Notes: generated from the letters alone by a model not told the origin. A stretch of DNA of 20,000 nt from Psammoneis japonica (GCA_008632985.1 QPGO01000258.1:66083-86082), one strand, 5' to 3'. Positions 1-20,000 are shown, numbered from the stretch's first letter. Translations and numbers: made by a program.

Positions 1-570
1 TGGTGGCAGTTGGAGCCTTCACATGGCTTTTTGCAGAGCCGGTGGTGTGTGGAGCCTTTGTGCTGCCAGCGCTGGTGGCGGCCGGTTTGAGCCTCTGCAG
101 CACTGCTGGACATGGAGCTGGCAGCCTTTGCACACCACTGAGCATGGAGCTGGTGGCAGTTGGAGCCTTTTGCTGTGGAGCTGGTGGTGTGCAGGGCCTT
201 TTTGCTGGCACTTGTGGTGGTTTTAGCCTTCACACTGCTGGGCACAGAGCTGGTGGCTTTGGAGCCTTTGCACCACTGGGCATGGAGCACAGAGTTGGCG
301 CTGTGGCAGTTGGAGCCTTGTTTGTGCCATTGGGAGCAGAGCTGGTGGCAGCTGGAGCCTTTTCACTGCTGGCGCTGGCAGTGGTTGGATTTTTTGCACT
401 GATGCTGATGCTGGCAGTGGCTGCAGCCTCTGGATTGCTGGCACTTGCTGTGTGGCTGGTTGAGGCCTTTGTGTGCTGCTGACACTGGCGGTGGTTGGAG
501 CCTTTGTGCTGCTGCTGGATGCAGAGCTGGTGGTGGTTGGAGCCTTTCTGTTGCTGGGTGGAGCTTTTGA
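1..570 (-). repeat. Degenerate 33-42 bp coding-type tandem repeat (KAPT / Thr-Pro-rich mucin-like), decayed; continues off the left edge
   Basis: Recurring GGTGGCAGTTGGAGCCTT-like units at about 12, 51, 122, 162, 261, 313, 354, 497 and 539. The minus strand reads KAPTAT/KAPTT in shifting frames (ORFs 223..702 and 230..814). Confidence 0.7.
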
Positions 571-2508
571 GCAGCAATTTGGCTGCAAATTGCAGGTTGC
601 TGTCATGCACACATTTCCCTTCTGCAGACATTCTGATGGCAAACACGTGCTCACAGGACATTGTTCTTGCACCTGCTGGAAATGATGCTGCAGTGAACAC
701 AAAACAGGAAAGCAGCTGCAAACTGTTGTGCAATTGTCCCATTTTGTGTTTCTTCATGCTGGGACAATGGATCTTCCCAACCTCCCAAAATTTGCACTTG
801 TGCCCAAAATGCAACTCTCTCCAACATCTGGACCCTCAACCCACAGTGCTCACCTGTCCCTGCACCTGCTTGCCAGCACTGCTGATTGCACTTAGAAGGT
901 TCATCATGCCAGTGCCAGCTCTGACAACATTTTTGAAATTTCCACACCATCCAGCCTCCCACTGTGACCAACACCCTGATGAAACCTGGCAGGCATGCAC
1001 CCCAAGTCATGGAAGGCTAAAAAAAGATTTTTTTGCAGACTTTGCATGTTTCAGGTGCAGCTGCAATCCAATGCTGAACTCAGCTTGGCTCTCAATTTGG
1101 CCACAATTCTGTCAATTGACCAGAAGCAATGTCAAAATGAAGTGCAAGGAGGGGTGTTGCTTGTGTTGTTTCTTCTTTTTGCCTTGGTGGTGCTTGCTTC
1201 CACATGATGTGTGTCATGGAACAATGAAGTTAAAAAAACTCATGGGAAAGTCAATGCAGAGCAAGTGTGTTCTTCAAGTGGCTGTGCACTGTGCCACTTC
1301 CATGCTCTTGCCATCTTGCACACATGCAAATGGACAGAGTCATTGTGTTTGGTGTGATCTGGGATCTTCAAGATGAAAAAATGTGCTGACTGTGGTTCGT
1401 GATTGGAGCAACAAAGGAGGACACATGGAAAAGCCGAGAGAGCAGAAGTGACAACATGGCAAATCCTGGTCAAAAAGAGGCCACAATGCAGCAAAACTTG
1501 GTGTGTCTCTGTCAAATGTGGGCCTTGGCAAAGCAGGCTTCCCTTGCAGCTAGAAACTCTGGGGCAACATGCACAAACTGTCTGATGTCAATGGCCGGCT
1601 TGCTTCAGCCAACTGGGCAGGATTCCGTGTGAGATGCTGGTGAGCGCAGCATGGAGTTCTGCATGTGAGCACATCCTTGAGAGCACAGAGTTGGGAAATT
1701 CAGCTGCTGCTTGGCAAAACAAATCTCTTGCCACCTTGCCAGCACAACACTTTCTTGTTGACATGTTGGCTCTTGGAAATGGCTGAACTCTGTTGTGCAC
1801 AGGGAAGATGTGGTGACAACAGCACAGTGTGGAGGTGACAAAGGTGGGGTGCTGGATGACTTCTTGAACTTTGCCAATCTCCTGAATGAAGTCACCACCA
1901 AGCCACAAGCTTGGTGTCACATTGAGGTTAACAGCCTCTCTGGGGATCTTTTGCAAAAGCTCGGTTTCCAATCAGGAGAGCTTGGGTGCCCAAGAAAAGA
2001 ATGTCCCTGCATTGTTTGTTGAAGCGACATGGCCAATTCAACCAAATCCTTCCAATTGCACCCGCCCCAACTTCGAGTGTCTGATCAGCTTTTTTTTCTT
2101 TTTTTTTTTCATTCAGAGGAGAAGCAGCCACGCTCAGTCTCACAAACAAATTGTCTTGCGACCATGCCATGAGAGAAACACTCAAATGGTGGATGCTTTT
2201 CAGAAGCATTCTTGACAAAAGAGAAGCTGCAATGGCAAGTCCAGTGCCTCTTGCTTGTTGAGGCCCAGCAACAACAACTGGCAGGGACGACATCACGTGA
2301 AACGATCAACTCCCGAATGAAATGCATGCACGTCAGATCTCACAATGATGATGATTGTTCATGATGGCCTCACTTCAGTCTTCGCATGAGCTCACTCTCT
2401 GCTCTGCTCTTGGCAGCTGCTCTCCAGCTCAGTCTGCCAGGTGCACTGTGCCGCATCTCTCCATCTCCAATTCGCGTGTCTCGCTTGATCCTCTCTGCTG
2501 TCTGTGTG

Positions 2509-2781
2509 ATGATTCGCTCTTTGCTCATGTCAGTCACTGTTGCCCTTTTTGGCTTGGCCCATGCTGGGACGAATCCTGAGGGACTGAAGTTTCCAGCCGC
2601 CAAGACACAGGAGGACGGGGTTGTGGAGTTTCCGTCAGGCCTTCTCTGCAAGGAACTTCGTGCTGGAACCGGTCCGTCGCCGAAGATTGACACGCCGTGC
2701 TTTTGCCACTGTGCAGGAACTTTGATCAATGGCACTGAATTTGACAGCTCTTACAAACGCGGGGAGCCGCTCACTTTTGCT
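2509..2781 (+). pseudogene. 5' fragment of a secreted FKBP-type peptidyl-prolyl isomerase (FkpA/Mip-like)
   Basis: Signal-like MIRSLLMSVTVALFGLAHAG, then GVVEFPSGLLCKELRAGTGPSP..CHCAGTLINGTEFDSSYKRGEPLTFA. Similarity stops before the VIxGW half. Conserved Tyr positions read Cys at 2647-2649 (TGC) and 2710-2712 (TGT). Confidence 0.88.
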
Positions 2782-3268
2782 CTGGAAAATGGGAGCTTTG
2801 CATCCCTTCTGAGTCAGGTTGCGGCGACCGTGGCGCTGGGGGGCAGATCCCAGGTGGTGCTGTTCTCGTCTTCACCTTAGAGCTTCTCAAAGTGACGCAA
2901 GACGGACAAGCGGAGTTCTAGAATGCCTCTTGCACCTGCGCGGCCCGCTCAAAACTTGGGTTTGCAGACCACTGCCGGCAGCGCTGTGCTCTAGAGAGAG
3001 GAAGGTCCTGCAGGGCTGTTTCGTCATTTGCACTGTCAGATTCATCAGCCATCAATTTTCGTCTTGTCCAATTGCAAGTCAACATTGCCGCTCTTCCATT
3101 GCGAAACTCATGTCTGCCACATTTCGCCCACCCGCATGTGCTTGTCTGCCAAGTGCCTCCAGGTGGTCATTTCCTGGTGCGTCAGCAACAATGCCCTGAG
3201 GGAAGCTGCCATCTCCAAAGCCATGTTGATGTCCAACCTGACAAAATTGCACATGTTGTCACACTCAC

Positions 3269-4860
3269 CCAATCATTCCATCACTTGTGCATTGAAACAT
3301 TCGACTGACAATCAGAGCGCCAACGCTGCCCAACCCTTTGTGCAAATGCTCTCAAGCAATGAATTCTTGTGGCCACATGGTGCAAAGTGCCACCTTTGCC
3401 AAAGGCCCCCGAGCCATTTGAAGCTGCTCAATTTCAACATCGGAGACTGAAATAGAAAACAAGTTGAGGATGCACAAAACAACACGTGAAAGCTCGGACA
3501 CATTGTCTCCACACTCGAAACAACAACACACCTCCCCCAACTGCTCGAAAAGGCCGAGCGGCAAAGTCCGCACCCGTGCTGTGCGTGTGCAACCAAACAG
3601 ATGCCGCAAGACCACCAGGCTGCGGTGAGTCGATTCCCACCCACCACAAATGTCGGCGTCGCAATCGTCAGGACAAACATGAGGCCACGGCGTGCCTGGT
3701 TCAAACTTGGACAGTGGGCTTTCTGCTTGTTCCAAATCATTTCGAAGGGTTGACAAGGCAACAGCAGAGAGCAACAATGTCAAATGAGCTGCTTCTTGGA
3801 GCAACAAGGAAGGGTCGAATTGCTCCATTGAAGCCATGCTCCGGACAACTGATCTGCCTTTGGAAAGTTGCAAAGCCGTTGTGCGACTCGCGTTGTTGTT
3901 AAGATTTTGGATTCGTCGCCTGCTGCAATGTGCTGCAGCAGTCTTCGAATGGGATCACCGACGGTCCTTTGCGGTTTCCACATTGGCGCATTGACACTCT
4001 GCGCTGGTCTCTGCATTGGAGCATTTGTGCTCTTTTTGGGCCCTTGCATTGACGGGGACTCGAGAGATTCGTTTCGGTCAGATGATTTTGCAACGATGAC
4101 TTGTGGAGGTCTCTGTTGTTGTGGCTGTCTTCACCGTGACGACAATCGCACTCCTCAAAAAGATTTCTTTGCACGATGCCACAGCGACAATTGAACATCA
4201 TGTCCCTGTGCACTTTCAATTTCGTCAAGGTGGTCTTCTAAATCTTGTCGTGTCATTTCATTCAATTGTTCCCGCTCCCGTTTGACAGAGGTTGCCTGTG
4301 GAAATTGCCCAAAGGATGGAGGCTGCGTGCATCTGTCTGACTGCAAATGAAATGCTGCAAGTTCCATGCCAACATCCAACCATTTGGAGTGCATTTGATG
4401 AACGACAGTCACTGCAGCAGACAAAGTGCTGTGAGCGATTGTGCCATGGGTTTTCCAATTGACGACCTCATGCTTGCCTGCTTCCCAATGCTGCAGCAAT
4501 GATGCACCCGACATCAGAGACACCAGACATCAGAGATGTCAAGAAGAGCGGCAAGATGAAAATGAATGTAAGTGCCTTCAACTTTCAATGCATTCCGAGT
4601 TCATTCTCAAGTCTGCACAACAAAAGCGCTGATGCCCAACACCTGCTCACGCGGCAATGAGAAAAGGAAGTTTTGAATGTCAGCAGAAAGGTGAAGGAGG
4701 CAATCAGTGCTCCCATTGGACAGGGGTGATCAAACACTCCATTCCCGCCGTCATGCAGGTCGAAGAAATGGAAAAAGACCGCTGCAGCCTTGAACAGTGC
4801 TGACCCATGCAGTCTCAACAGAGCTTGAAAGCCAAACACACCGCCTTGATGCTTTGTCAT
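3269..4860 (-). pseudogene. 3'-truncated bestrophin-like (UPF0187/RFP-TM type) gene with retained introns
   Basis: ATG at 4860. Motifs LRLHGSALFKA, DHP(C)PMGALIASFTFLLTFKTSFS, (H)WEA|VTVVHQMHSKW, PSLLLQEAAHL..LSAVALSTLRND, AARPFRAVGG|VSDVEI..ARGPLAKVALCTMW.QEFI, SDGMIG. In-frame introns inferred at 4491-4650, 4412-4477 and 3447-3531, with a further donor at 3268. Contains frameshifts and stops. Family call is from memory of diatom homologues. Confidence 0.72.
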
Positions 4861-4959
4861 TGTTGCTGTGGAGTGGGCTTGCACTCTAGAACGATTGTGC
4901 AAATGTGCAAAATGCAGAGGAGAAAGCGCTGTCATTTGCCATTTTCATCATTCCTGCTG

Positions 4960-7086
4960 CGGCTTCTGCGGCAGAGTGTTGGCTTCTAATCCGTCCAAGA
5001 GCTGCGCAGCACCTCGTTTCATTGCAATGCTGCAATCACCGTCGCGGACAACAGTGTCGCATTTGATCAAGAGCGGCTCCAACTCCACCAGTGCCTCAGC
5101 CGCAGCTGCAACCATTGCAGAGGCGGTTGCTTCAAAATTGTCAAGCTCGACGGGCGGCAACTCACTGGTTTCCGCTGTGGCATCAACCGAAACTTCGGGA
5201 AGCTCCGTCAAGGATGGATGAGCGCCATTTTTGTTCCATGCATCACACGGCGACCACAACAAAGCTGTGGTGTTGGCATTGAGCAGCTCCATGACGTTTG
5301 ATGAGGACAGATTCAAGATTGTGACGGACACACCATGCACATCAAATGAAGTCATGCAGCTGCCCACAAAAATGCAAGTCACTGTGCAGCCATGCTGCAT
5401 TTCCAGACAGCCCAAAATGGAGTTGGTCAAGATTGACATTTCAAAGTTAGATGTCCCACCCAAATTGTTGACAAGGACACAGAGATCGTCTCCTTTTTCG
5501 AACATGGGAACGACTGCTTCCAATTCATCGACACACCCACACTTGTGAATCGCACCAACCATCTCCTTTGCAAGTTCCTTGCTTGTCAAAAGCGCGGACT
5601 GCTTCACCCCAGCTTCGCCATGAATTCCGAGGCCAACTTCAATCATGTCATCATCGTCCAGATGATCTTTGACTGCCACTGCACCAGGCACCGTGACTGC
5701 ATCAAGCGCCGCACCCAACGTTCCCATGTGTTTTGCAGTCAGTGCAGCCAGGTTTGCCGCGCCCTGCAAAGATTTCCCTTCGGCAGCAGCTGCTCCTGCA
5801 ATCTTGTGAACAAGAATGGCTCTGGAAATGCCTTGAGCTCCAGGGATGCCCTTGGTTCTCTCCAAGGCCGCATCGTCGGCTGCGACCGCCACTTGGCAGG
5901 AAAGACGGGTTCCAGCCCCAGGTGGGACTTTTTGTGACATTTGCCCCGCAGAATTCCACGTGCGAGCTCTGCAGTTTGTGCTCTGGTTGATGGACATGTT
6001 CACTTTCGACATGAAATGAACAGTCAATTTTGCAGCACATGCACCTCTGTTCGCACTCGAAGTTTTAGATGACACGCCTGCCCTGCGCCATTCTCAAGAC
6101 ACTCGAGAATGGCGCAGAAGAAAAAAATGTCAAAAGTTGTTGAGTGGATCACCCGACAATTGCACTGTAAAATGATGCAAAATTTCGCCAAAATCACGCA
6201 GAAATGTGCATGCGCGACATGCGACGCGCATTCAAAAAACTGTCGATGTCACAGTTCAGCAGGGCGAGGTCCCACCCAGACCTGGAGCGCGTCTGGCTCG
6301 ACCACATGCCGCTCCAAAGTTCAAACGGTCACCAGCGCAGTTCTTCACCACTGGCAGAATGGGGCTTGTTTTCCCACATGAAGCGGCGCGAATTGCAGCC
6401 AAGGCAGCGGCGACAGAGGGAGACGCAAAGATTCCTCCTGGAGTGGCTCCGCTGAGCATGCCGTCGCCTGTCCATCCTGCATGACTCGGCTCATGTCCGC
6501 CGCCGCCACTGAGAATCTGAGCACCCGTTCCAGCCTTCAAGTTGCTCTTGAGCACAACATGATGATTTTTCAATTTCGCGAGGCGAGCGAGTCAGATGTT
6601 GCAATGGCAGGCCAGCAACAAATTCGTCGACAGTGTCGGCTGGATCGCTGGTGATCTTTTTCGGCTTGGGCGATGCGACGCTTTTCTGCTGTGCGAGTTG
6701 AGCCAAACAACACCTGGTCATTTTGCGTGAGGGTCAATCACTGCTGGGAAGACTCACGCGGATGTTCTCAGCAAGAAGCTCCTTTGCACAAGGGCCGTCG
6801 CTCAAGAGCATGGGACAAAAGCTGCGGCCCAACCAACCCGCTGCACGACCTGTCTTGCAAGTCGCAGCCGAGACGGCAAGTTCTTTGAGAATTGCACTCG
6901 CATTGCCCCGCTTGTCAACGACCATGGTGTCGTTGCACACTTTGTTGGAGCTCTTGAAGATGTGCGCTCGAGTGCGGAACAGGAGCCCGCTTGTTGGCGG
7001 GTCATCGCCGAGTGCATTTTGCTCTTGTCGGAACGGCCGGTCAGATGCAAGAATCAGCTCAATGGGAATCAGTTCAACAGAATTCG
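4960..7086 (-). pseudogene. Dihydroxyacetone kinase / triokinase (DAK1 + start of DAK2 domain), frameshifted, interrupted and 3'-truncated, with an upstream non-DAK exon
   Basis: KKITSDPADTVDEFVAGL; SGGGGHEPSHAG..GML..IFASPS; VKN(C)AGDRLNFG; ADD..LVHKIAGAAA; GLGIHGEAG; LVNNLGGTS; DGDC. Frameshift near 6575 and an insertion at 5911-6286. The DAK2 SMGGTSG motif is absent. Intron 6689-6757 joins an upstream exon in frame. Confidence 0.9.
5911..6286. mobile_element. Candidate MITE-like insertion in the DAK pseudogene
   Basis: 376-bp non-DAK block splitting the DAK1 domain. Ends are imperfect 18-bp inverted repeats (TCCAGCCCCAGGTGGGAC vs revcomp TCCAGGTCTGGGTGGGAC, 14/18). A central 13-bp stem hairpin lies at 6083-6117. 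No clear TSD. Confidence 0.55.
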
Positions 7087-7165
7087 CTGGCGATTAGAGT
7101 GCACACAATGTGATAGAAAGACCCGCCATTTTGACAAGCAGAAAGCATTCATTGGCTTCCACAGT

Positions 7166-8197
7166 CAGAAAACGCATCTGCGGCATGGCAAGTGCGGCAA
7201 CAACGGCGGCATGGAAATCTGATTGGACAAACGACGTCAGCTAGCTATGAACTTTGTTCTTCACAACAAGTGATGTTGACATCATTATTGCCCCCCCAGC
7301 ACCTGCCAGCATCGCGCAGGCAGACCCCATGCTGTACAAGTATGGTAGTACGAGTGGTAGCACTCACTCTACACTGGATGAGACGCATCACGTCAAGTAC
7401 TGAAGCCGCACGTAGAATTGTACGTGGAATGAGATGTGGTTTTTTGTGCAAGTCGCCATGGCGGTGTGTGGTTGTTTTGGACAACTTCTATCGACTTTGT
7501 GACTATAGAAGTAGGATCAATCGATAATATGAAGTAGTTATGATATGTGTAGAGAAGGAAATGGTAACGCTTCGCGTACTTCTTTCCAAAATGGACCTGT
7601 TGTATTGCAAGAATTTTCAGGTCTTTTCATGCATCGCAGAAAGCCATGCATAAGGTCCCTAAACTAGATCTCTATGACACAGAAACTACCGTACAGAGTA
7701 ATTTAGATATGGCGGATTGAACGGTGTTATTTGTAAGTTAAATGGTTTTAGAGTAGGTAGACTAAATGGCCCGAGAAGGACGGTGCAAAAATTTCTACTT
7801 GAAAGTTGCTGAAATTGTCCCATAAGAGGGTCGCACATGCATTGAACAAAAAGAGAAACAACACACACATACTAACAAAAATGCTGCGGTTCTAATGGTG
7901 TTATTTTTATGCTCACCAGTCCGAAAGTTGCCGCTGTCATGGGCGGTTCGTGCTGTTTGTGTATCATGATGTTGTGTTGTCTTGCTGAGTCTCCAAGGAC
8001 TCTTGTGAATGTTTCTGTTGAAGTGGAGCGCGAATCGCCACGGCCGGGCGGCGGGGCGGATGGTGGGCGGGGTAAGGATGATGTCATCATTACTTATTGT
8101 GAACAACAAGGTTCTTAGCTGACGTCGTTTATCCAATCAGATTTCCATACCGCCGTTATGACCGCACTTACCATACCGCGGATCGATACGTTTTCTG
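7166..8197. mobile_element. Non-autonomous TIR DNA transposon, Mutator (MULE)-like, 1032 bp
   Basis: TIRs at 7166-7243 and 8116-8197, starting CAGAAAACG. Perfect 9-bp target-site duplication TTCCACAGT at 7157-7165 and 8198-8206. No transposase ORF. A 9-bp TSD with long TIRs is typical of the Mutator superfamily. Confidence 0.88.
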
Positions 8198-8224
8198 TTC
8201 CACAGTTTGCCTGCCGTACACCGC

Positions 8225-8403
8225 GAGGAATTTTGTGTCTCGGAGGAATTTTGTATCTCGGAGGAATTTTGTGTCTCGGAGGAATTTTGTATCTCGGAGG
8301 AATTTTGTATCTCGGAGGAATTTTGGGTCTCCGAGACACAAAATTCCTCCGAGACACAAAATTCCTCCGAGATACAAAATTCCTCCGAGACACAAAATTC
8401 CTC
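8225..8403. repeat. Palindromic array of 18-bp repeats: 6 forward + 4 inverted copies
   Basis: GAGGAATTTTGTRTCTCG at 8225, 8243, 8261, 8279, 8297 and 8315 (last copy variant). CGAGAYACAAAATTCCTC at 8332, 8350, 8368 and 8386. Symmetry centre about 8332. Confidence 0.97.
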
Positions 8404-8424
8404 CGTCCTCCGTGAACCGATACC

Positions 8425-9118
8425 GAGATGACGCAGCGGCGACCCATGCTCGGCGTTGTTTGAGCTATTCTTCGTCGTTTTCGTTCATTAAAGACACGGA
8501 TATTACTTTTAGGAGGTCGACTTATTAGATGAGGTCCTTGGTTTGGCGAGAAACGGTGTTGTGGTTGTGTAGAAATCAAAAGATGGGTCTTTTTGCTTTT
8601 GTCAGCCATTTCTGAGCGGCAAAACCCATGCTCGGATGTTTAATCGCTCATTTCACTTCATCTGATGACTATCTTTGCTGGTATCGACTGACCATAGTCA
8701 CGAAAAGTTTTCCATGTCTTGGGTATGCTGTGAGTGGGGGCTGTGTCGAGAAACATCGTTCTCTCGTATCGACAAGAAACACCAAAAAGCATGGAATTGA
8801 CACGATCCATACTTTGATGGTTATTCGTTCAATACACCTTTTCTGTTGTGTACCTTTGCCTGGATCTCTTTGTTATAGATACGAAAATCATCTCCTGTCT
8901 TGTGTATGTTGTCTGTTTGATTTGTGGAGAGAAATGTCGGTCACACTCGTGTGGTCTCATGTCGGCATTTTGTGATTATCGCTGACCCATGCTTTGATGT
9001 TTATCCGTTCATTTCGTCTCTTTACTCACACTTCTTAGATTAAATCATTACTTTATAGCTACAAAAAGATTAGTCTGTCTTGGACATGCCTTCGGTGTGG
9101 TCTGTAAAGCGCAAGTGT
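8425..9118. repeat. Left arm of a long inverted repeat, composed of diverged ~180-bp units
   Basis: Reverse complement of 9720-10410 over about 690 bp, with scattered substitutions and long identical tracts (e.g. about 8652-8785). Motif (G/A)AYCCATRCT at 8441, 8623, 8804 and 8984. Confidence 0.95.
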
Positions 9119-9719
9119 CATTCACAACACAACTGCGACATGCACCGACGCCTCTCCTCGCTTTCCGACAATACATTTTCCCGTTTGTCTAATCTATTTG
9201 GACACTAATTGAGTCATATAATAGAATGATAATAGAATGGTAATACCAAGCATGTTCTTCTTTTATCTGAAGCTATTGTTTCCTTGTTCTCCATGGTAGC
9301 ATCATTCTGGATTCTCCTCGGCTGGTCGTGCATCCGTGAGTCGAATGAAGTCCGTAATCCTCATTTTGTTCAACATCAGCTCGTTCACTAGAAGAATCAT
9401 GAGCAGAGCCGGAGGAGTCGCTTGATGGGCTGCAAGTGCTTTTGATTTTGATATTGACAAAAGGACCCCGATTCTCCTCGTCAGCACTAGCAGAACTCGC
9501 AGGAACGGTGTCGGTGCTTTCCTCGGCGGACGTGTCCGCAACAGCCTTTGCTTGGCATTTCTTGGTGGATCTATTGTGCTTCCTTGTATTTTGGTTGAAC
9601 TCTTCCTCTTCTTTTCATGATTCCTCTGCTTCTCGTTGCTTTGGGACAGCATGCGCTTGCGGGGAGCTTTATGACTGAAGCTTGCGCATCGCTTGTGTTG
9701 ATGTTGGACGGTGTGCTCC

Positions 9720-10410
9720 ACATTGCTCTTCACAGACCCCACCAAAGGCAAATACAAGACAGTATAATCTTTTCGTAGCTAAAAAGAAGAGATTCGATTA
9801 AAGAAGTGTGAGTAAAGAGACGAAATGAATGAATAAGCATCAAAGTATGGGTCGGTGTCAGTAAAAAAAAAGACACGGGACCACACGAGTGTGACCGACA
9901 TTTCTCTCCACAAAACAAACAGACAACATACACAAGACAGGAGATGATTTTAATATCTATAATAAAGAGATAACAGCAATGGTACACAACAGAGGAGGTG
10001 TATTGAACGAATAACCATCCAAGTATGGATCGTGTCAATTCCATGTGTTTTGGTGTTTCTTGTCGATACGAGAGAACGATGTTTCTCGACACAGCCCCCA
10101 CTCACAGCATACCCAAGACATGGAAAACTTTTCGTGACTATGGTCAGTCGATACCAGCAAAGATAGTCATCAGATGAAGTGAAAGGAACGAATAAAGATC
10201 AAAGTATGGGTTTTGCCGCTCAGAAATGGCTGACAAAAGCAAAAAGACCCATCTTTCGATTTCTACACAACCACAACACCGTTTCTCGCCAAACCAAGGA
10301 CCTCATCTAACAAGTCGACCTCCTAAAAGTAATATCCGTGTCTTCAATGAATGAAAACGATTAAGAATAGCTCAAACAAGGCCGAGTATGGGTCGGCGCA
10401 GCGTCATCTC
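9720..10410. repeat. Right arm of the long inverted repeat, directly upstream of the kinase gene
   Basis: Mirrors 8425-9118. Motif AGTATGG(G/A)T ends near 9853, 10031, 10212 and 10394. The arm ends about 165 bp before the kinase ATG. Confidence 0.95.
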
Positions 10411-10573
10411 CAAAAACACAACTTGAAACTTCACGTTCCCAACAAAAAGTCTCTCCGCGCTAAAAAAATAAATCCCACGGATCGCGCGAAAAGCAATAAC
10501 ACGGGTTGCGATTGGCGCCGCTGCTGCACCTACCTGCCGAAGGGAAAAGGGAACAAAGCCAACAGCCAAGACG

Positions 10574-13500
10574 ATGGCACCAGCCACACGCAACACTACA
10601 AAGACTCCAAGGAAGAGCAACGCTCGCAGTCGTTCTCATCATGCCCCAGCGACGACTCTCCGGGCAGTGACAGCGCAAGACTTTGTCAGCAGTCCAAATG
10701 ATGCAGAGCTGGCGCTGCTTCCCGCTGCGGTTGCTCGTGCCTTGACCGACCTTGCTTTCGACGCAGCTTCTACGGCGACACCGCGCAGGAAACGACGCAG
10801 CACTGGTGCTGCTGGTACGTCCAAGACCATCGCCTTGAATGGTTTGACTGAACAAAAGCTCCGAGCCTTCATCAACAGTGCGTCCAAGCTTGATGGTCCT
10901 TTGGTTGCAGCATTGGAGCGTCTAGCGGAAGAGGAAGGTATCCATGGGATGCTCGAAGATTGCGATGTCAAGAAGACGGCGGTCTTTCGTGACTGGCACA
11001 CTGCCTACGTGACAGACCCGGAAAGCGAACAGGCGGAACAATACCGTCGTTTTGAGCTGATGCAGTTTGCAACCAAGAACATGAAACGCGTCAAAGGACG
11101 CGTAGCCAATACTTTTGCGCCTATCGGAAGCAGGGAATGCACCACGCAAGAACTTTCCCGTTATGCCACATCCCTTGTGATGCTCCTACGCGACGCTGCC
11201 TTACTCCCTCGCGAAAATGTCGACTCGGACACCGATGGTTCGTGCGACGGCAGTTGCCGTGAAGAACTCTTGTGCCGAGTGGCTCGCTTCATTATGTTTA
11301 ATGGCATCTTGATCAGCGACTTCGAGAACTTTGACACTCACCACGGTCGACGCCGGCCTAGTCTGTACACACAAGTCTTCATCCAAAGTGGGCTAGCCTT
11401 GCCGGAAGGCCTGGATTACTCAGAAATTGACGACAAGGATGACCAGTGCGATCCGTTTGACCTGGACTTCAAGCAAAAGTGCATCAGTCAGCTCTTGATG
11501 GTTCTCTTTGGTGGCAATGACTGTGCCACGCCTTTTGTCAAGCGCGTGTATTCCTATTTCAAAAAGGTCTGGGAGCTGCAGCACTCTAGCAAGCTTAGCT
11601 CACGCATGGCAGGAGCAACTCTTTTCGAACAGCGCAGCATGTTTATACATCAATTTCTCCTCTGGGGTAGCGAGGAGGAGGACGATACCTTGGGGAATAC
11701 ATCTTCAGCAAATGTGCCCTCGATCGATGAGTCGATTGCGTCGTTGGTTGCTTCGTCGCTGTCGTTTGATACCGATGACCATCCATCGGCGAATGCGTCG
11801 ATTGGTGGGGTTACGGCGGTGTCGTTAAGCCCAGCCTCGACACGCAGTATTGTGCACAGTAGCAGTGGTACTAGCGATGGTTGCAAGACCCCTGGAAGTT
11901 CCAACGGCAATAGAACTCCTCTTGCCATGCTCAAGGGCGCCATTGAAGAGCTTGTTGCGGATCCGTTCAACAAGAAAAAGTATTCTGAGGTCGCCGTGTG
12001 TGCTTCCAAATGCTATCCCCAGCGCAGCTTGCTCGTGGGATACGAGTTTCCGGACCCCGCCAGTCCAGCCGCCAAAGAAACTAGCAAGTTGCTTCGAGCA
12101 GCATGTCCGGCGACAAAGGTGGAGGAGCCGGTCCGTTTGAGCAAGGCCGAGAGCACGTTTGTGGATCAACTGCACAATCTCAAAAAGACGGACAAGAACC
12201 TTCCTGATATTCAGTTCATTCGCACCCTATTTCCACTCATTCAGAGTGCTGACCAGTTCTACAACACTGGGGGCATTCTCGAAAAACGGCTTGTCCAGTC
12301 CCACATCAAGGCGCTTCCAGTGGATTCCAGTATCAGTAATTTTGCTGATACTTTTGCTCCGTCCGCCGCGCAGGCCGCATCAGGAGGGGACGAGAATGAA
12401 TATGATGCTGTGGAAAACACCGACGAATTAAGCGACGACGACGATATCGAAACAGCGAATGCCTTACCAGTCGCTCCAACGCACACCCCTGCTGGTGTGC
12501 TAGGCAATCTGGAAGTTTTCAACTTCATTAAATCCTGCAAGGAGGACCGTCGCGAGGAAGTAAAGGATGGCAAAGTGGTTTACGAAAACGTCTTTTCCCC
12601 GGAAGTCCAGGCATTGTTGGGAAAAAGCTATCAAAAACCGGGGAAGAGCGAGGAGGAGCAGGCGTGCGCTGGATATCGCATGAACCAGGATGACCTAAAG
12701 CTTGTCCGCTTCGTCGATCACGGAGCCATGGGTTTTGTCTTTATGGCCAAGCACCAGTCTGGCAAGCTGGTGGTGGTCAAGTATGAGTGGTTTCATCCGT
12801 GGGATGTTGGCGACTATCTCATTCGAGTTCTCGTAAACCATTCCCTGGTCAACTACAGCCCTCACGTCATGACTCTTTCTGACTGGTTTGTTGTTATGTG
12901 CGATGGCACAGCGTTGAAGCAGAAGATTAGGGGTGGAGATAGACTCGAACGCAAGTGTATGATGATTGCTCTTGTCGCTGAGTGGTGCCCCGGTGGGAGC
13001 TTCAAAGCTGCTGTCAAGAAGCGTATCGAGCTTGGATCCCTCAGCATGGGCTGGGTTCTAGAACACGCAATTCAGCTTACCCAGGCGCTTCGCTGCTTCA
13101 AGCGACACAATATTGTCCACCGTGATCTGAAGCCAGCCAATATTCTGATCGGGTCTGACGGTAACGTGAAGATTGCCGACTTTGGCCTTGTTCGCAAGTC
13201 TACTCGGGGTCAAGAGAGTGGCACCCGTGGAGCTGGAACTCCTGGATTCCGCAACCATGCTGGGGTAGTGTATGGCAAGTACGACTCTAACACGGATGTT
13301 ACTGCCCTTGGTTACACCCTCCGCGAACTGTTTTTACAAGGAGACGAAGAGGGCTCAACCAAGGAAATGACGGCTGACGAGGTGGCTGGCGCAGAGGCTG
13401 CAAAGCAAGAGGCATTCACACCGCAGCAAATGGAAGAGGTCATCTCGAATAGTGAAAGCAACAAGGAAGCCCTGAAAGCGTTCCATGAGCTCATTCAAAG

Positions 13501-13597
13501 CATAATCGTCGAAAGTGATGCAACCCGCATCTCAGTGGAGGAGCTTGAGCGCGCACTCGAAAAAATTCGTGAGACGGTGTTGGAGAGCGCTGAATAG
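10574..13597 (+). CDS. 1007-aa intronless protein with a C-terminal eukaryotic protein kinase domain (about 12690-13570) and an unassigned ~700-aa N-terminal region
   Basis: Uninterrupted ATG..TAG ORF with normal TA/CG content and Tyr codons. Kinase motifs: DHGAMGFVF (G-loop), VVVK, HRDLKPANIL (13118), KIADFG (13178), GTPGF, DVTALG. Confidence 0.93.
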   Translation: MAPATRNTTKTPRKSNARSRSHHAPATTLRAVTAQDFVSSPNDAELALLPAAVARALTDLAFDAASTATPRRKRRSTGAAGTSKTIALNGLTEQKLRAFINSASKLDGPLVAALERLAEEEGIHGMLEDCDVKKTAVFRDWHTAYVTDPESEQAEQYRRFELMQFATKNMKRVKGRVANTFAPIGSRECTTQELSRYATSLVMLLRDAALLPRENVDSDTDGSCDGSCREELLCRVARFIMFNGILISDFENFDTHHGRRRPSLYTQVFIQSGLALPEGLDYSEIDDKDDQCDPFDLDFKQKCISQLLMVLFGGNDCATPFVKRVYSYFKKVWELQHSSKLSSRMAGATLFEQRSMFIHQFLLWGSEEEDDTLGNTSSANVPSIDESIASLVASSLSFDTDDHPSANASIGGVTAVSLSPASTRSIVHSSSGTSDGCKTPGSSNGNRTPLAMLKGAIEELVADPFNKKKYSEVAVCASKCYPQRSLLVGYEFPDPASPAAKETSKLLRAACPATKVEEPVRLSKAESTFVDQLHNLKKTDKNLPDIQFIRTLFPLIQSADQFYNTGGILEKRLVQSHIKALPVDSSISNFADTFAPSAAQAASGGDENEYDAVENTDELSDDDDIETANALPVAPTHTPAGVLGNLEVFNFIKSCKEDRREEVKDGKVVYENVFSPEVQALLGKSYQKPGKSEEEQACAGYRMNQDDLKLVRFVDHGAMGFVFMAKHQSGKLVVVKYEWFHPWDVGDYLIRVLVNHSLVNYSPHVMTLSDWFVVMCDGTALKQKIRGGDRLERKCMMIALVAEWCPGGSFKAAVKKRIELGSLSMGWVLEHAIQLTQALRCFKRHNIVHRDLKPANILIGSDGNVKIADFGLVRKSTRGQESGTRGAGTPGFRNHAGVVYGKYDSNTDVTALGYTLRELFLQGDEEGSTKEMTADEVAGAEAAKQEAFTPQQMEEVISNSESNKEALKAFHELIQSIIVESDATRISVEELERALEKIRETVLESAE

Positions 13598-14934
13598 TCG
13601 GGTTGGTCTCGGTTGTTTGGTCTTTCTTGTTTTGATGAATAGTGAGGAAGGAGTCGGACTCGACGCCATCGCATTCGTAAATCGGTGTTGATCCTCCTGG
13701 CTATCAGTCGTTCCTTTTCCGTCATCTGTGGGACTTGGAGGACGACAACTAGACGGGATTTCTTAGAACAAATACACAAATACAGAGTAGAAAAAGGGTT
13801 CTTCTCATCATGTTACATTCTTTAGGCTCTTGTTGACCATCGTTAGTAGGAGAGTGCGTGTGCGTAACTCTGTTGCAGACGATCGACACCTTGGCAAGGT
13901 TGGGCTAAGGCATGCTCTCAAGAATCTACTCTCAGACGACAACAGAGGATCGTCTTCAGTCTCTAGCTAGAGTGTCCAACGAAAGTAGAGGCAGCACCAA
14001 ATTCAATGTGGGCCAGCAGCGCGTCAGACTTTGAGAACTCAAATTCTAGGTGGCAAACGACGGCAGGAGCACACCCTGCTTGGCAACGCACAGCAGGCGC
14101 TCAGCAATGCAACGAGTCCATCAACAAGAAGTCTCCTCAGAGGATGGTTCAAGTGGCACACTCTCTTGTGGCAACAAGATCTCATCATTGTGTTGCTGAT
14201 CTTTTGTTTCTGGGTTGGACGACTGAAGTGCTCATTGCTGGAACTGATTGTGCAACAAGCACGTGACAGAACTCTGGCAACTCAGGCATTTTTGACACAC
14301 TCAGTTGTTCCACAGGGCATTGAAGCACAGTGTGGCACTTTGGTCAGTGCTTTCCTGATGCAGGTTCAACTCCTGTGCATGTCACACTGCTGGACACGCA
14401 GGATCTCTGTCAGTGCAATGCTGAGTCACAGAGCACAGTGGGCTGTTCTTTCAGAGCCACTGTGGATTGCTTCTGACAACTGCTGAAGTCAAAGACAGCT
14501 GGCAATGACTGTGGAAGGTGCTGTTTGTGCAACACAGTCCTTTGCAGCACTTGGGCTTTGCGGGCAGGTGGGAAAGAAGAAAACAGTGCGGTGCTTCTTC
14601 TTGACATTTCAACAACAACAAACTCTCTTGAAGCTGTCTCAAGAAGGAGCAGGTCTGAAAGCAGTTTTAATCACAGACACCGTCTCTTTGACACGTGCAT
14701 TGTCAAATCCATGAACTGCCATTGATGTGAAGTGAGGAAAGAAAGGATGGAGCCGACCCTCACAGAAGATTCTTTGCCGAAATGGAAAACAAACAACAAG
14801 ATGATGAGATCAATCCTGGGGGCAGTGACAACATTGACATTGAGGTTGGCATTGACAAATTGGGAAGAACACCGCAGCTCACATGGTTGCGGGATCCATT
14901 CGAAGCAGCAGTGGTTGCGACATGGACTTTTCAA

Positions 14935-14994
14935 TTGTTGACTCCATGCTGAATTCAGCCAAGTTTGTTGACTCCACACTGAGTTCAGCTGAGT
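14935..14994. repeat. Two tandem 30-bp copies
   Basis: TTGTTGACTCCATGCTGAATTCAGCCAAGT / TTGTTGACTCCACACTGAGTTCAGCTGAGT. Confidence 0.8.
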
Positions 14995-17900
14995 CAGAGT
15001 CTGAAGACTTGGTCAAGACCCAGATGATCAAGATGAATCTGCACAGTCACCAACACCTAAGACGTTGCCCAACCACACCAAATCTTGACCCATCCCTGAG
15101 TCCCACACAGCATCCACAGGCTTCTTTGCTCCCACTGCAACCAATGCAAACAGCTGTTGCCAGTTCCCAGAAAGTTTGGGCTCTGCCTTTTTGAGAAGTG
15201 TTCTCAATCCCACAGTGAGCGCATTCAACAACACACACCTGCCACACACACCTCCGGCCACAGAAACTTCACATGAAACATCTCATTTTGGCAAATGCAC
15301 TTGATCGAAGAGTGCCTTGGGGCATCTTCATTCTGCTTTGGAGCATCTTGAAGAATGAGATTTGTTGGATCAACAAACCAAGGGTGTTGTCAGAGATTTG
15401 GTTGATGTTGGAGATGAAGAGCTTGGAATTGATGTGATGTGAACAAATGCTGCACTCTTGTTCTTGTCCTCCCTTGATGGGACAGGCAATCTCATTGTCA
15501 CTGCTGTCATCATTGGATGATGCAGAAGCAGTGGCAGTCCTTCTGGTCCATCAGGAAATTCCCTTCCACCAAATGAAAATCCAATGTTGCAGCCATCGTT
15601 GCTTTGCTCCACACAAGTGCCACTGTTTTGCTTCTCCTGTTGTTGCTCTTTGGGTTGCTTGTCCTCTGTGGCTGTTCTTGCTGCGTTCTCTTTCTTGGAA
15701 TGGCATTCAAACTTGTTGTGGGCTTCAACAATGTTGATCACATGGTCACAGGTTTTTGTGGCTTTTTTTTTTTGCAGTGCCGGCACAGAAGTCATCATTG
15801 GAGCTGGAATCGCCTGCACCTTTTGAGCTGAATCCTCCCCAACTCCCATCACACTGACACCCAGTTGACACACATGCACAAAAGACAATGACACTTGAGC
15901 AATGCCAGTTGGAGGCAACACAGAGGGAATGAGTCATCTTGCTGGAGATTTGATGCTGAAAGGTTGCTTTGCATTCTTTGGTGTTGGTGTGGATCAAAAG
16001 AACAGACTGGAGCAAGGCACAGTGAATCACAGCTTGTCTTGAAACAGCTGCTGGCGTGGGCATTGTGACAATTGCATCCAAACCTGGCAGGTGCAACACA
16101 CCAGCACATTTGTCTTGAATGGCATGTCCATGTGCATGTTTTGAAATGCACTTGGAACACACAGCAACCAGAGCTGAACAAAAGTTGGGGAAAGGAGCAA
16201 ACTGGCCAAAAATTGACTGTGTTCAGTGTGCAAACATGGGGTCAGAGATTCATTGGCTTCTTCTTTGTCATCTGGGGTGGTTGCTGCAGACACATCAGTG
16301 CACATTGCAGCTGCAGGGTGACCATGTGACACAGAGTGGTGTGTGCTGCCAAGCTGAGCACCCCAGACTGGCTTTGAGCCAAGCCCAGGGCACCAGCTGC
16401 CAGCTCCCTCTGCCCCACCCCCCCAGCAGGTGCTCTCCTCTTGCAATGTGGTTTGGCTGCTCAAGCTGCACCACACACTGACTCAAAGGCTGCACTTGGG
16501 AATGGCTGGGGAGAACAAAAACTTGCAAGCTTGGCTGCTTGCTTCAGACCTTTTGCTGGCAAGCAAAAGCTTGTGAGAAAAGACCAGCGGGTGCTGCAGC
16601 ACCATGAGCAGAGGAGAGTTGTCACCACTGGTGCATTTCAGGTCAAGTGCTTGGCATGCTCAATGACTCCTGGACCCAACCTTGCCAAGATCTTCTTCAC
16701 TTTGAACCACACAAGCAGGGGCAGAGGTTTGTTGGCTCTTTGTCATCCAGGGTGGCTGTGCCTCCAAGATGCTGCTCTGCTCTCTTTGCTGAGGGAGGCT
16801 CCCAGCTGCTCATGGGTCATGTGCACTTTGGGGGCATGTCGCTTGATTTGCAAATTGTGTCATGCTCCTTGCCCACAACTGTGTGGTGTGCCCAATGTGC
16901 CAGTGCATTGGCTGGGCACGTGACAAACTTTCATGCTTGTCTGTGGCTGGCAAAATGCCATTGAGCTTCCCACTTGCTTTTTTGAATGCTGCTGTCAACA
17001 TGTCACAAGTCAAGCCCAGCTCACTGTGAGAAGCACTTCCAGTGGGCTGTTGCTTGGGAGCATTTGTGGTTGTCTCACATTGTGTGTTGGCCAGCAAAAA
17101 TGGGTGCTCTCCTGTTTGCAGCAACAAGCAAGGTTGTGTGTCAATGATGAGGGGGAAAGCCTCTCTTGCTGTCACCACCACACAACAAAACAATTTCTCT
17201 GGTTGCATCTCCATCAAGGGGTTGACAGAGCCAAATTGGCTCTGTTGCTTTTCACAGGTGTGCTGCCAAGGCAAACTGAGGGCAGGCAACTCATGCATTT
17301 GCACATTGAACAGGCAGAGGCAATTTTGGACATGAGAGAAATGGCATGTTCGAAAGCATTTTCTGCTTGTCATTCAAACCATTTTGCAACTGCCACAGCA
17401 TGGGGCACCAACAGGAGCTCCTGTCATCTCTGGCTTTGGCCAGGGATCTTTGCAGTTGTGCTGACCCTCAAGCCAGCACTCTTGTCTGAGAGGGGCAGTG
17501 GTGTGTGGGGTTGGGCAGTCCAGCCAGCTTGCTTGTGCTCTCTTGATGGCACAAAGTGCTCTCATGGCAGCAAGGTGGGAGCAACTTTTGTGAGTTGTGA
17601 GCTGGGCTGGTGCTCTGGAGGTCTAAGTGCACCACTGGGAAGCTGTGCAGGAAGAGCTCAGTGCTGCCACCATGGTCAGAATCATGGGCCTGTTGCCCCA
17701 TGTCTTGTGATTCTGGGAGTGCTCACAACTCCCAGGTTTGATGTGTCAACTGGCAGCTTGGAAAACAGCTTGAATTGCAACACCTGACATTTGGGTGGTG
17801 CTGTTGTTCCCAAGAGCTGGGGGGAGGGAACAGGCAGAGAAAGGTTTTGCAGGTGCTGCTTTGTCAATGGTTGGGGACACAGCTTGGACTCTGGACTTTC

Positions 17901-19337
17901 TCAGGATGGAAGCAGCAGGTGCAGCAACAGAAGATGCCTTTGTGACAGAGGAGTGGCTGATGGACAAAGCCTGAGCACAGAGAACTGTCCACTCCAGCTC
18001 AAGCAAGCAACACGCTCCAAAGGCGATGCTGCATGTGTGTTCATGCACCAACATGCTTCAAGCTGAAAGTCATGAAAAATGCCATCAGCCTCTCAAACAG
18101 CTGCAGTGTGGGGGTCAAACCACAAATGTGCCATTTGAGAGTCCAAGGCTCAAAACAAGAGTGGCACATCAACTCTCTTCTCATTTTGTGCATTCAAGAA
18201 CCCCTTGTTCTTCACAAGTCTTTTGCACATGCTTGCTTCTGTTGATTCAAGGGCAAAGAGAGGAGTCACTTCTTGTTTCTTTCTTCCAGTTTTGGTTGTC
18301 GGGCAGTGTTGCAATCTTCATTTTCACAATTTGGAAATTGGCAAAATCAATCACTGCTTGTTTGTCTGTTTGCCATTTTGTGTCTCTGCAGCAAAAAGCA
18401 CTGCAAGACCACAGTCCTTAAAAAATTGTTTTGCCACAAGCTCCAAATTGTTTCACCAATTTTGGTGCTTTGAAACATGTTGAGCATTCACTCAACTCAG
18501 CTGAGTCCCAGTTTTTGGTAGATGCAAAATCACGAATGTCAAACAAATGGCTGATTTCAACATGAAGCTCCCCAAGTTTAACCCCCTTGTGAACATGCAC
18601 TTCAGAGCTTGTGGCCATGATGCACAAAAGCATGCTTTTGTTGTTGTCATGTGTCAAGAAAAGCTGACACATCAAAGTTCAGCACAAGGGTGGAGTGCAA
18701 ATTAATTTGTGCATTCATTGCCTGGATTGCACCAATGATGTGACAGCAAAAAGTGACAGTGAATCTACACTCACAATCAATTGACTTTTCTGCATTGCTT
18801 AGAATTTGAAATCTGACCACTGAGCATTTGGCTCTCTTTGTGCCAAAGTGGAAATGACACTTGACAATTTGCACTGTTCATTTGGCTCAAAGTCAAATGA
18901 AGCATTTGGGTCATCACAGGCTCATTGTCACATTCAGCCACAATCATGAAGTCTTTGCCAATGCCTGCTTTGCAACTTTGAGCAATCCCTCTGTCACAAA
19001 TTCAAAAATGTGTTTTGTCAAAGTGAAGATCAACAAAATCACATTGTTGCCCTGATGAATGAATGCAAGTTGGGGTCAAGAAATCCAGGCGTCAAGAAAT
19101 CCATGACAGCTGGCTGAGAGATGGATCATTCTTCAAAAGGGAGAGATCAGGAGTGTTTCATTTCTCTTCTTGTTGTGCCACTCAGAGCCTGCTGTCTGCT
19201 GCACAGGTTGGTGCCCCAAAAGGATGAAACAATGATGTCAACAAGAAGACAAGCAGTCATGCATGAAGAAAGATGAGTGCAGCCAGAGAAGTTGTTTCTT
19301 GCCATGTGTGTGAGCACAGCAAATGTGAGCACGAGCC

Positions 19338-19884
19338 CAAAACAAAACCCAAAATCTGTGTTTAAGGTGCTGCTGCACTTCTGCCCTGCAACTCCAGCAT
19401 CAAGCTGGCCCACACCCCCAGCGCACAATCAGTGTGGCAGGGGCACACAGCAACTGGCTAACAACATCAACACTGCTGCCAGGTGAAGCAATTGGCAACA
19501 GTGCACATGCCTCTTGCAGCAAGACATTTGGCTTCTCAAATGCTGGACTTGAACATGGGGCAAACCATGGTCAACTAATTTTGCAGTCTGTGTGTTGAGT
19601 GAGTCGAGTCAAAACAAAACCCAACATCCATTTTTAAGGTGCTGTTGCACTTCCGCCCAGCAACTCTGGCAACAAGCTGGCCCACACCCCCAGCACACAT
19701 GTGTGCGACAGGGGCATGCAGCAATCAGCCTAGACCAGCATCACCATCAGGTGATGCCACACCAAAACAACTGGCAATTGCACAAGCGCCCCTTGCTGTC
19801 AGCCTCTTCACTTCCTTCATGCTGGATTTGAACATGGGTCTTGCCATTTCCAACCAATTGTGCAGTCTGTGAGTTGAGTGAGTC
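19338..19884. repeat. Diverged tandem duplication of a ~270-bp unit
   Basis: Copies at 19338-19605 and 19610-19884 share CAAAACAAAACCCAA, TTTAAGGTGCTG, CAAGCTGGCCCACACCCCCAGC, ATGCTGGAYTTGAACATGGG and TGCAGTCTGTG.GTTGAGTGAGTC. Confidence 0.85.
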
Positions 19885-20000
19885 ATGTGTTCATCCATGT
19901 GGGCACCTCAAACTTTGAAGCACGGTGAACTGCAGCCAAGTTGTCAAGGCACAGGTCGCTTCCCAGAGGAAAGCCCGCAAGACAATGTTCCATCACCCAA

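Follow-up and report, generated by a model that had tools for sequence, protein, structure and literature searches.

We describe a 20,000-nucleotide stretch of DNA deposited as Psammoneis japonica (GCA_008632985.1, QPGO01000258.1:66083-86082; analyzed at its full length and hereafter called the window), in which the dinucleotide TpA has been almost erased from two tracts lying on either side of a TpA-normal island. The pattern is probably the work of a region-limited process that turns TpA into TpG or CpA in dead flanking DNA, carries the same signature as the hypermutation described in the chlorarachniophyte Bigelowiella natans and most likely operates through an adenine deaminase acting on DNA. 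The two tracts, and the inverted repeat that straddles the edge of one of them, are located as follows.

1-7243, no strand: left TpA-erased tract, from TpA counts and edge mapping
13990-20000, no strand: right TpA-erased tract, from TpA counts; mostly single-copy by depth up to ~16000
7176-7260, + strand: inverted-repeat arm straddling the left edge, from alignment to its partner
8104-8183, - strand: unmutated partner arm, the reference for the ancestral state, from alignment

Dinucleotide counts revealed 21 TpA at 1-7240 and 15 at 13990-20000 (observed/expected ratio (o/e) of 0.05 and 0.04), compared with 260 in the 6.7-kb middle region (7241-13989; o/e 0.57). The ratio is evenly low over both flanks in 500-bp bins (0-0.17), and the TpA frequency in the flanks is 0.0025-0.0029. 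CpA and TpG are correspondingly high in the left flank (o/e 1.63 and 1.66) and the right flank (1.92 and 1.80), and other dinucleotides show no depletion on the left or the right (AA, 1.30 and 1.23; GA, 1.01 and 0.89; AT, 0.87 and 0.75). G+C content is ~0.50 in the flanks and 0.48 in the middle. These values bear out a preliminary description of the same DNA, which had reported near-elimination of TpA with other adenine contexts left in place and had counted by hand about 35 survivors, about 29 of them in YTAR (Y, pyrimidine; R, purine); the program gives 36 and 29.

The sequence context of the survivors points to the target. Twenty-nine of the 36 lie in YTAR (TTAA 9, TTAG 7, CTAA 7 and CTAG 6), a share far above the 50 of 258 found in the middle region (Fisher p = 6e-13), and the remaining seven are ATAG (2), GTAA (2), TTAC (1), GTAG (1) and CTAC (1). 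Over both strands of the 13.25 kb of flank, TAT/ATA occurs twice and TAC/GTA five times. YTAR dominates because it is the only TA context without TAY on either strand. Survival, defined as observed flank sites over the middle-region count scaled by length, falls steeply with the number of adenines in TAY:

YTAR: 29 observed, 98 expected, survival 0.30
Contexts with one adenine in TAY: 7 observed, 253 expected, survival 0.028
RTAY: 0 observed, 155 expected, survival 0

Additive per-adenine exposures of ~3.0 for TAY and ~0.6 for TAR fit these values and predict ~0.4 RTAY survivors, where none was observed. Every TpA is a target, and by this fit of survivor counts the adenine in TAY is lost ~5-fold faster than that in TAR. 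The relative sparing of YTAR among NTAN contexts, part of the preliminary description, is thus confirmed.

The direction of change can be read from a decayed gene copy in the left tract that has an intact paralogue elsewhere.

2365-2918, + strand: FKBP-type isomerase pseudogene, with the FKBP_C domain over two frames, 2365-2877 and 2745-2918

The pseudogene lacks 52 bases present in the paralogue (at 2782/2783), and over the alignment (window 2478-3022) 40 of 545 bases differ, leaving the two 93% identical. The paralogue has kept its TA and is single-copy by depth in X1, one of three sequencing runs (X1, X2 and X3) that all derive from one sample and one study. Its depth is 58 in X1 and 471 in X2, and X2 may be a different kind of library from the same sample. 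Among the 26 differences listed (40 in total), ten are TA in the paralogue and either CA (6) or TG (4) in the window, two are CG in the paralogue and CA in the window, and none is TA in the window with CA or TG in the paralogue. The inverted repeat repeats this pattern: five positions read TA in the partner but CA in the tract arm, CG is matched by TG at one site, and the other CpGs are retained. Together, the two alignments contain 15 sites (10 FKBP, 5 inverted repeat) with TA in the reference copy and CA or TG in the window, and none in reverse. Judged from these alignments, of the kind that the preliminary description had proposed, the loss of TpA is mutational and consists of TA>TG and TA>CA, that is, A>G or T>C.

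Survivors by themselves do not distinguish an adenine followed by a pyrimidine from an adenine that follows purine-T, and the aligned sites bear on this choice. The product expected under TAY was found at six of seven one-sided informative sites (3/3 in the inverted repeat, 3/4 in FKBP), which together with replacement of tyrosine by cysteine in a second pseudogene (below) favors TAY>TGY over the mirror-image RTA model, in a suggestive but not conclusive way. The TAY target named in the preliminary description therefore stands as a preference and not as the sole target, because YTAR survival is only 0.30 and the FKBP copy has mutations at four YTAR sites. Runs tests of TG versus CA, and of TGY versus RCA, yielded z from +1.4 to -2.4 in the flanks, with no clear clustering into strand-coordinated patches; the same tests detected clustering in the middle region, due to palindromes.

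The second recognizable gene copy in the left tract is a pseudogene of dihydroxyacetone kinase, which lies in pieces on the opposite strand.

4969-6667, - strand: dihydroxyacetone-kinase (Dak1 domain) pseudogene, from Pfam and homologue alignment
6667-6566, - strand: piece 1, homologue residues 3-32
6585-6289, - strand: piece 2, homologue residues 29-128
5904-4969, - strand: piece 3, homologue residues 131-447; 936 bp uninterrupted
5905-6288: interruption of 384 bp, between homologue residues 128 and 131

This copy is frameshifted and lacks the Dak2 end. Its 492 translated residues contain no tyrosine at all, and cysteine replaces tyrosine in both of the two columns that are at least 70% conserved as tyrosine among 60 homologues, including the KNY(T/A)GD motif, and at three sites relative to homologue P0122. 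Other over-represented changes are Thr>Ala (5), Val>Ala (4), Ile>Thr (2) and Arg>His/Cys (5). As a codon control, codons touching CA or TG were 55-56% identical to four homologues, compared with 66-69% for the rest (p 0.006-0.08), a modest effect. Parts of the interruption (~5904-5996 and 6230-6294) correspond to sequence of very high copy number, whose summed contig depth is 11,800-33,700 compared with ~62 for single-copy DNA, and these stretches are present even in the tiny run X3.

The same pseudogene carries the phylogenetic signal of the window. Every named protein among its best 120 relatives comes from a pennate diatom (Seminavis, Nitzschia, Pseudo-nitzschia, Fragilaria, Mayamaea, Epithemia and others; 48-56% identity). 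In a quick tree, which included no chlorarachniophyte sequence, the pseudogene falls, with a long branch, within a group holding all named diatoms (SH-like approximate likelihood-ratio test (SH-aLRT) support of 99), and that group is internally unresolved. A protein-atlas look-up of the Dak piece returned a family name only. The 936-bp Dak piece, together with the uninterrupted 3.1-kb frame of a kinase gene in the island, fits intron-poor diatom genes better than those of B. natans. B. natans genes are intron-rich. We therefore judge a diatom or a close relative to be the likely source of the DNA and a chlorarachniophyte an improbable one; were it B. natans, the finding would already be known.

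The edges of the tracts are sharp. On the left, the last mutated TA site lies at ~7228 and the first surviving vulnerable TA (CTAT) at 7246, making the edge at most 18 bp wide, and it falls within a sequence whose unmutated partner spans it. On the right, the edge is at most 60 bp wide, between TA 13986 and TA 14047. Examining the island as a possible insertion, we found no direct or inverted terminal similarity at the two edges beyond chance (best score 22; shuffles reached 21 at the 90th and 24 at the 97.5th percentile). The 7-mer CTAGCTA occurs at both island edges, at 7241-7247 and 13963-13969, which is compatible with chance (~0.2). Read as a target-site duplication, it would have placed both TA in protected YTAR before insertion, and yet the partner arm spans the left edge. 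Self-comparison also identified a pair of tandem copies in the right tract:

19330-19890, + strand: two tandem copies of ~275 bp each

The adjacent double difference seen most often between them is a CA-versus-TG swap (7 of 37), as would be expected if each copy resolved its ancestral TA or CG independently.

Parts of the tracts have also lost CpG, most clearly in one sub-tract and toward the far right.

1-2000, no strand: sub-tract also lacking CpG (o/e 0.03-0.17), with decayed repeats spaced ~142-185 bp apart at 36-557

CpG o/e is 0.0-0.2 at 1-2000 and 15001-20000, and 0.13 for the right tract overall. At 6001-7000, however, CpG stands near expectation (o/e 0.95-0.97) and TpA is almost absent (o/e 0-0.07); the two losses are independent, because TpA has been erased where CpG is intact. 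Loss of CpG is probably a separate and ordinary overlay caused by deamination of 5-methylcytosine. Diatom transposable elements are reported to be CpG-methylated (PMC9998398). Such decay resembles what is found in parts of the tracts (loss of CpG to TpG or CpA), but it cannot remove TpA and so does not explain their composition.

We searched the flanks with Pfam across 74 frames of at least 90 aa and 150 of 153 frames of 45-89 aa (all but three at 2-229). In the flanks, only FKBP_C and Dak1 exceeded curated cut-offs, and no viral or transposon domain did; no protein domain was recognized in the right tract, and Rfam returned no match in the window at gathering thresholds. Weak sub-threshold matches in the flanks were to Pre-SET, DUF3716 and SWIM. 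The SWIM zinc-finger match (18650-18877, - strand; E 0.004, 17 bits, cut-off 19.6) faintly suggests a decayed transposase of the Mutator-like element (MULE) type in the right tract. By these searches, most of the tract DNA is unidentifiable, and the recognizable targets are duplicates of host genes (FKBP and Dak). The tracts also abound in long false reading frames because TAA and TAG have been erased and only TGA stops are left: the window contains 73 stop-to-stop frames of at least 100 aa, mostly overlapping in the flanks. Erased tracts of this kind mislead gene prediction, and orphan gene calls are likely in them.

Between the tracts, the island combines multi-copy repeats with a protein kinase gene.

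7244-10410, no strand: repeat-rich DNA with normal TpA and CpG (TpA o/e 0.5-0.8 in 500-bp bins from 7501)
8207-8418: two facing arrays of an 18-bp unit, together a near-perfect palindrome
8425-8963 and 9872-10410: arms of a ~2-kb foldback, 539 nt each and 94% complementary
10472-13597, + strand: protein kinase gene, an uninterrupted 1041-codon frame with the kinase domain at residues 794-1025

Summed depth over the repeats at 7244-10410 is 480-1030 compared with 62 for single-copy DNA, or ~8-16 copies, and reaches 750-1030 in summed contig depth over the arrays and foldback (8207-10410). The latter interval looks like an unclassified multi-copy foldback-type element that has no recognized protein domain. 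The kinase gene is single-copy by depth, with a TpA o/e of ~0.5. In a search of 1.84 billion representatives, its best relative was a 257-aa protein (57% identity) that matches the domain only, and the first ~790 residues had no recognized relatives. A search of a protein collection expected to include annotated proteomes did not return the kinase itself. On these searches the 1041-residue kinase is lineage-specific. A viral origin was considered and set aside, as viral contigs yielded no match in a search sensitive to close relatives only. The preliminary description had portrayed the island as a spared kinase gene amid saturated duplicated or transposon-associated DNA. The kinase is indeed unmutated, but the island also holds the untouched 8-16-copy repeat, which sits badly with saturation of duplicated or transposon-associated DNA, and the scan of flank frames detected no transposon domain. 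Because these 8-16-copy repeats keep normal TpA, a simple copy-number trigger acting now is argued against; they may postdate the episode, or recombination may have created the left edge.

The preliminary description knew of no published counterpart. Our literature searches turned up one description of hypermutation directed at TpA, and nothing from diatoms: Mettrop et al. (bioRxiv 10.64898/2026.01.13.699255; 14 April 2026) report TpA>TpG/CpA hypermutation, the same signature as here, arising in mutation-accumulation lines of B. natans. According to that preprint, an integrated nucleocytoplasmic large DNA virus (NCLDV) region and a virophage region together received 231 of the 302 nuclear point mutations; 230 of these 231 were A>G or T>C, all 230 at TpA, and the rates were ~6e-7, in some of the Illumina-sequenced lines only (bioRxiv 10.64898/2026.01.13.699255). 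The hypermutable NCLDV region is single-copy, 124 clusters of windows combine Rho_TpA ≤0.43 with Rho_CpA+TpG ≥1.52, and a low-TpA subgroup of coding sequences has a TpA frequency of 0.0018 (bioRxiv 10.64898/2026.01.13.699255). Its authors propose deamination of adenine in DNA, name an ADAT2-like B. natans candidate and cite DNA editing by amphioxus ADAT2 (bioRxiv 10.64898/2026.01.13.699255).

We applied the two preprint thresholds to the window in 1-kb windows. Rho_TpA was ≤0.08 in 13 of 13 flank windows, and in 11 of 13 Rho_CpA+TpG was at least 1.52; both thresholds were passed by 11 of 13 flank windows, with consecutive runs at 3001-6000 (three) and 14001-20000 (six), and by none of the seven middle windows. 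These results, with a TpA frequency similar to that of the B. natans low-TpA coding sequences, identify the present tracts as a long-term footprint of the same kind of process. The two cases share changes of A>G or T>C only at TpA, yielding TpG or CpA, their confinement to regions with normal neighbors, and near-saturation. They differ in that gene phylogeny and structure here look diatom-like and not chlorarachniophyte (an assignment that is unproven), that the recognizable targets are host-gene duplicates where those of B. natans, as the preprint presents them, are NCLDV and virophage DNA, and that mutations were seen there in real time but are read here as a footprint in sequence alone. Documented here are a preference for TAY over TAR, decoupling from CpG and edges sharp almost to the base pair; the preprint's main text contains none of the words 'trinucleotide', 'context' and 'CpG'.

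A mechanism consistent with these observations would run as follows. The flanks would be non-functional DNA, made up of decayed host-gene duplicates, degraded repeats and unidentifiable sequence. A deaminase of the TadA/ADAT2 type, or another, would be directed to silenced or foreign chromatin and convert adenine to hypoxanthine in DNA, which would be fixed as G at replication. The resulting A>G change after a 5' T, on either strand and ~5 times faster at TAY, would drive the flanks almost to saturation, and the kinase gene and young repeats would either have lain outside the targeted domain or have arrived or been converted after the episode. Like the preprint, we infer adenine deamination in DNA; our reason is the resemblance between A>G after a strict 5' T and the U33-A34 target of TadA/ADAT2, and targeting would depend on chromatin state, foreignness or duplication. 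The natural target of TadA and ADAT2-ADAT3, A34 following U33, is 5'-UA, and a context of 5' T and 3' Y is compatible with this family. The target of bacterial TadA is UACG, which is a TAY context. We know of no demonstration in any protist of natural genome-scale DNA adenine deamination by the TadA/ADAT2 family.

Several observations weigh against this account. The choice of TAY over RTA comes from few sites (6 of 7; two-sided binomial p ~0.13), and the balance of tetranucleotide products relative to the middle region was too noisy to give a direction. The edges are much sharper than a chromatin gradient suggests (≤18 bp on the left) and may reflect a recombination or duplication boundary. 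No viral or transposon domain was detected in the flank frames scanned, and the identifiable targets are of host type, unlike the viral DNA of B. natans. Finally, the reads come from one sample and may be the source of the assembly. Run X1 contigs match flank stretches 699-1773 and 16647-17212 with no differences, one X1 contig bridges the right edge (10395-16282, 15 differences), and run X2 covers only scattered parts of the window; this agreement is not independent support because all the runs derive from a single sample and the assembly may have been built from them. A regional A>G process, as first suggested, is sustained in being regional, near-saturating, mutational and of the form TA>TG/CA; its read support comes from that one sample.

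None of the rival explanations explains the data better. A true analogue of fungal repeat-induced point mutation (RIP), with duplication sensed by homology, mutation ending with the duplicated segment and a chemistry of A>G at TpA, is in our judgment rather unlikely, although RIP too leaves regional, near-saturating transitions in non-functional or duplicated DNA, with a dinucleotide target, destroyed frames and sharp edges. The recognizable targets here are host-gene duplicates (an FKBP copy 93% identical to a single-copy paralogue, and the Dak copy), tandem repeats in the tracts have diverged by CA/TG swaps after duplication, and the near base-pair edges are such as the end of a duplicated segment would give. 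RIP itself, however, is C>T mostly at CpA, creating TpA and removing CpA and TpG, so that the dinucleotide shift runs in the opposite direction, as the preliminary description had argued. It also mutates both copies, whereas here the FKBP paralogue is unmutated and the adjoining 8-16-copy block, including the 94% foldback, keeps normal TpA. The right tract is mostly single-copy by depth, though saturation could mask old homology, and the preprint describes the hypermutable NCLDV region of B. natans as single-copy. We consider very unlikely a second possibility, that the tracts are retro-copies of RNA hyperedited from A to I by an ADAR- or ADAT-like enzyme and then reverse transcribed. ADAR and APOBEC enzymes do provide a parallel of deaminase-driven, clustered transition hypermutation against selfish nucleic acids, but APOBEC changes are C>T, and ADAR acts on double-stranded RNA with looser neighbor rules. 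ADARs prefer a 3' G, and U or A over C or G on the 5' side; to our knowledge, neither ADAR nor APOBEC erases TpA from kilobases of genomic DNA. In favor of RNA editing, the changes are A>G on either strand, and the preprint's Discussion notes that ADARs favor uridine 5' of the edited A (bioRxiv 10.64898/2026.01.13.699255). The tracts, however, run continuously for at least 6-7 kb across opposite-strand pseudogenes, repeats, anonymous DNA and the 384-bp Dak interruption; the 5' T is near absolute, with AA, GA and CA not depleted; the preferred 3' neighbor is a pyrimidine and not the G of ADAR; and mutation has struck a single arm of an in-situ inverted repeat, leaving the partner arm unchanged.

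That a modified base is primary, either N6-methyladenine at TpA or a modified thymine that raises the mutation rate or is misread in sequencing, strikes us as distinctly improbable. TpA is palindromic and could be marked by a maintenance methylase, the tracts partly coincide with CpG decay, which suggests silenced and modified chromatin, and the data come from one sample only. Misreading, on the other hand, would not account for the independent lesions of the pseudogenes (52-base deletion, frameshift and truncation), and base calling is not globally biased, because the same run yields TA-rich paralogues. Tandem copies show CA or TG at homologous positions, as fixed mutations would, and the B. 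natans changes, by the preprint's account, arose de novo in Illumina-sequenced lines. Scarcely credible, finally, is the absence of any targeted process, with TpA removed by selection (UpA-sensitive RNA decay or avoidance of TA-target transposons) or by GC-biased gene conversion. A mild shortage of TpA is common to most genomes and is present in the middle of the window (0.57), but an o/e of 0.04 in dead pseudogenes in which conserved Tyr has become Cys is not selection, and the survivors are led by TTAA, which is a classic target of transposons. Nor is there a general drive from AT to GC, because flank G+C is hardly above that of the middle and AA and AT are not depleted; the paralogue comparisons contradict this explanation as well.

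The region-limited TpA process reported here is a real and striking finding of a kind already described in B. natans, and its value lies in a probable second lineage, a sharper target and endogenous targets. Before the 2026 chlorarachniophyte preprint, no natural process that mutates A to G in genomic DNA in a programmed or targeted way was known to us. Erasure can reach duplicates of host genes as well as viral DNA, and the 3' pyrimidine preference provides a sharper target definition that is testable on candidate deaminases; an adenine deaminase that acts naturally on DNA in a defined context would also be of interest to base-editing technology. More tentatively, and as a possibility to which we give less than even weight, diatoms may possess a TpA-specific adenine-editing defence that acts on endogenous duplicated DNA within near base-pair bounds, a homology- or domain-delimited 'adenine RIP' carried out by a TAY-preferring deaminase. 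If true, this would add a second, ecologically dominant lineage of the SAR supergroup (stramenopiles, alveolates and Rhizaria) to the chlorarachniophytes, and the process would not be a peculiarity of a single alga and its viruses. Should the organism be a diatom, the process would be widespread in marine protists.

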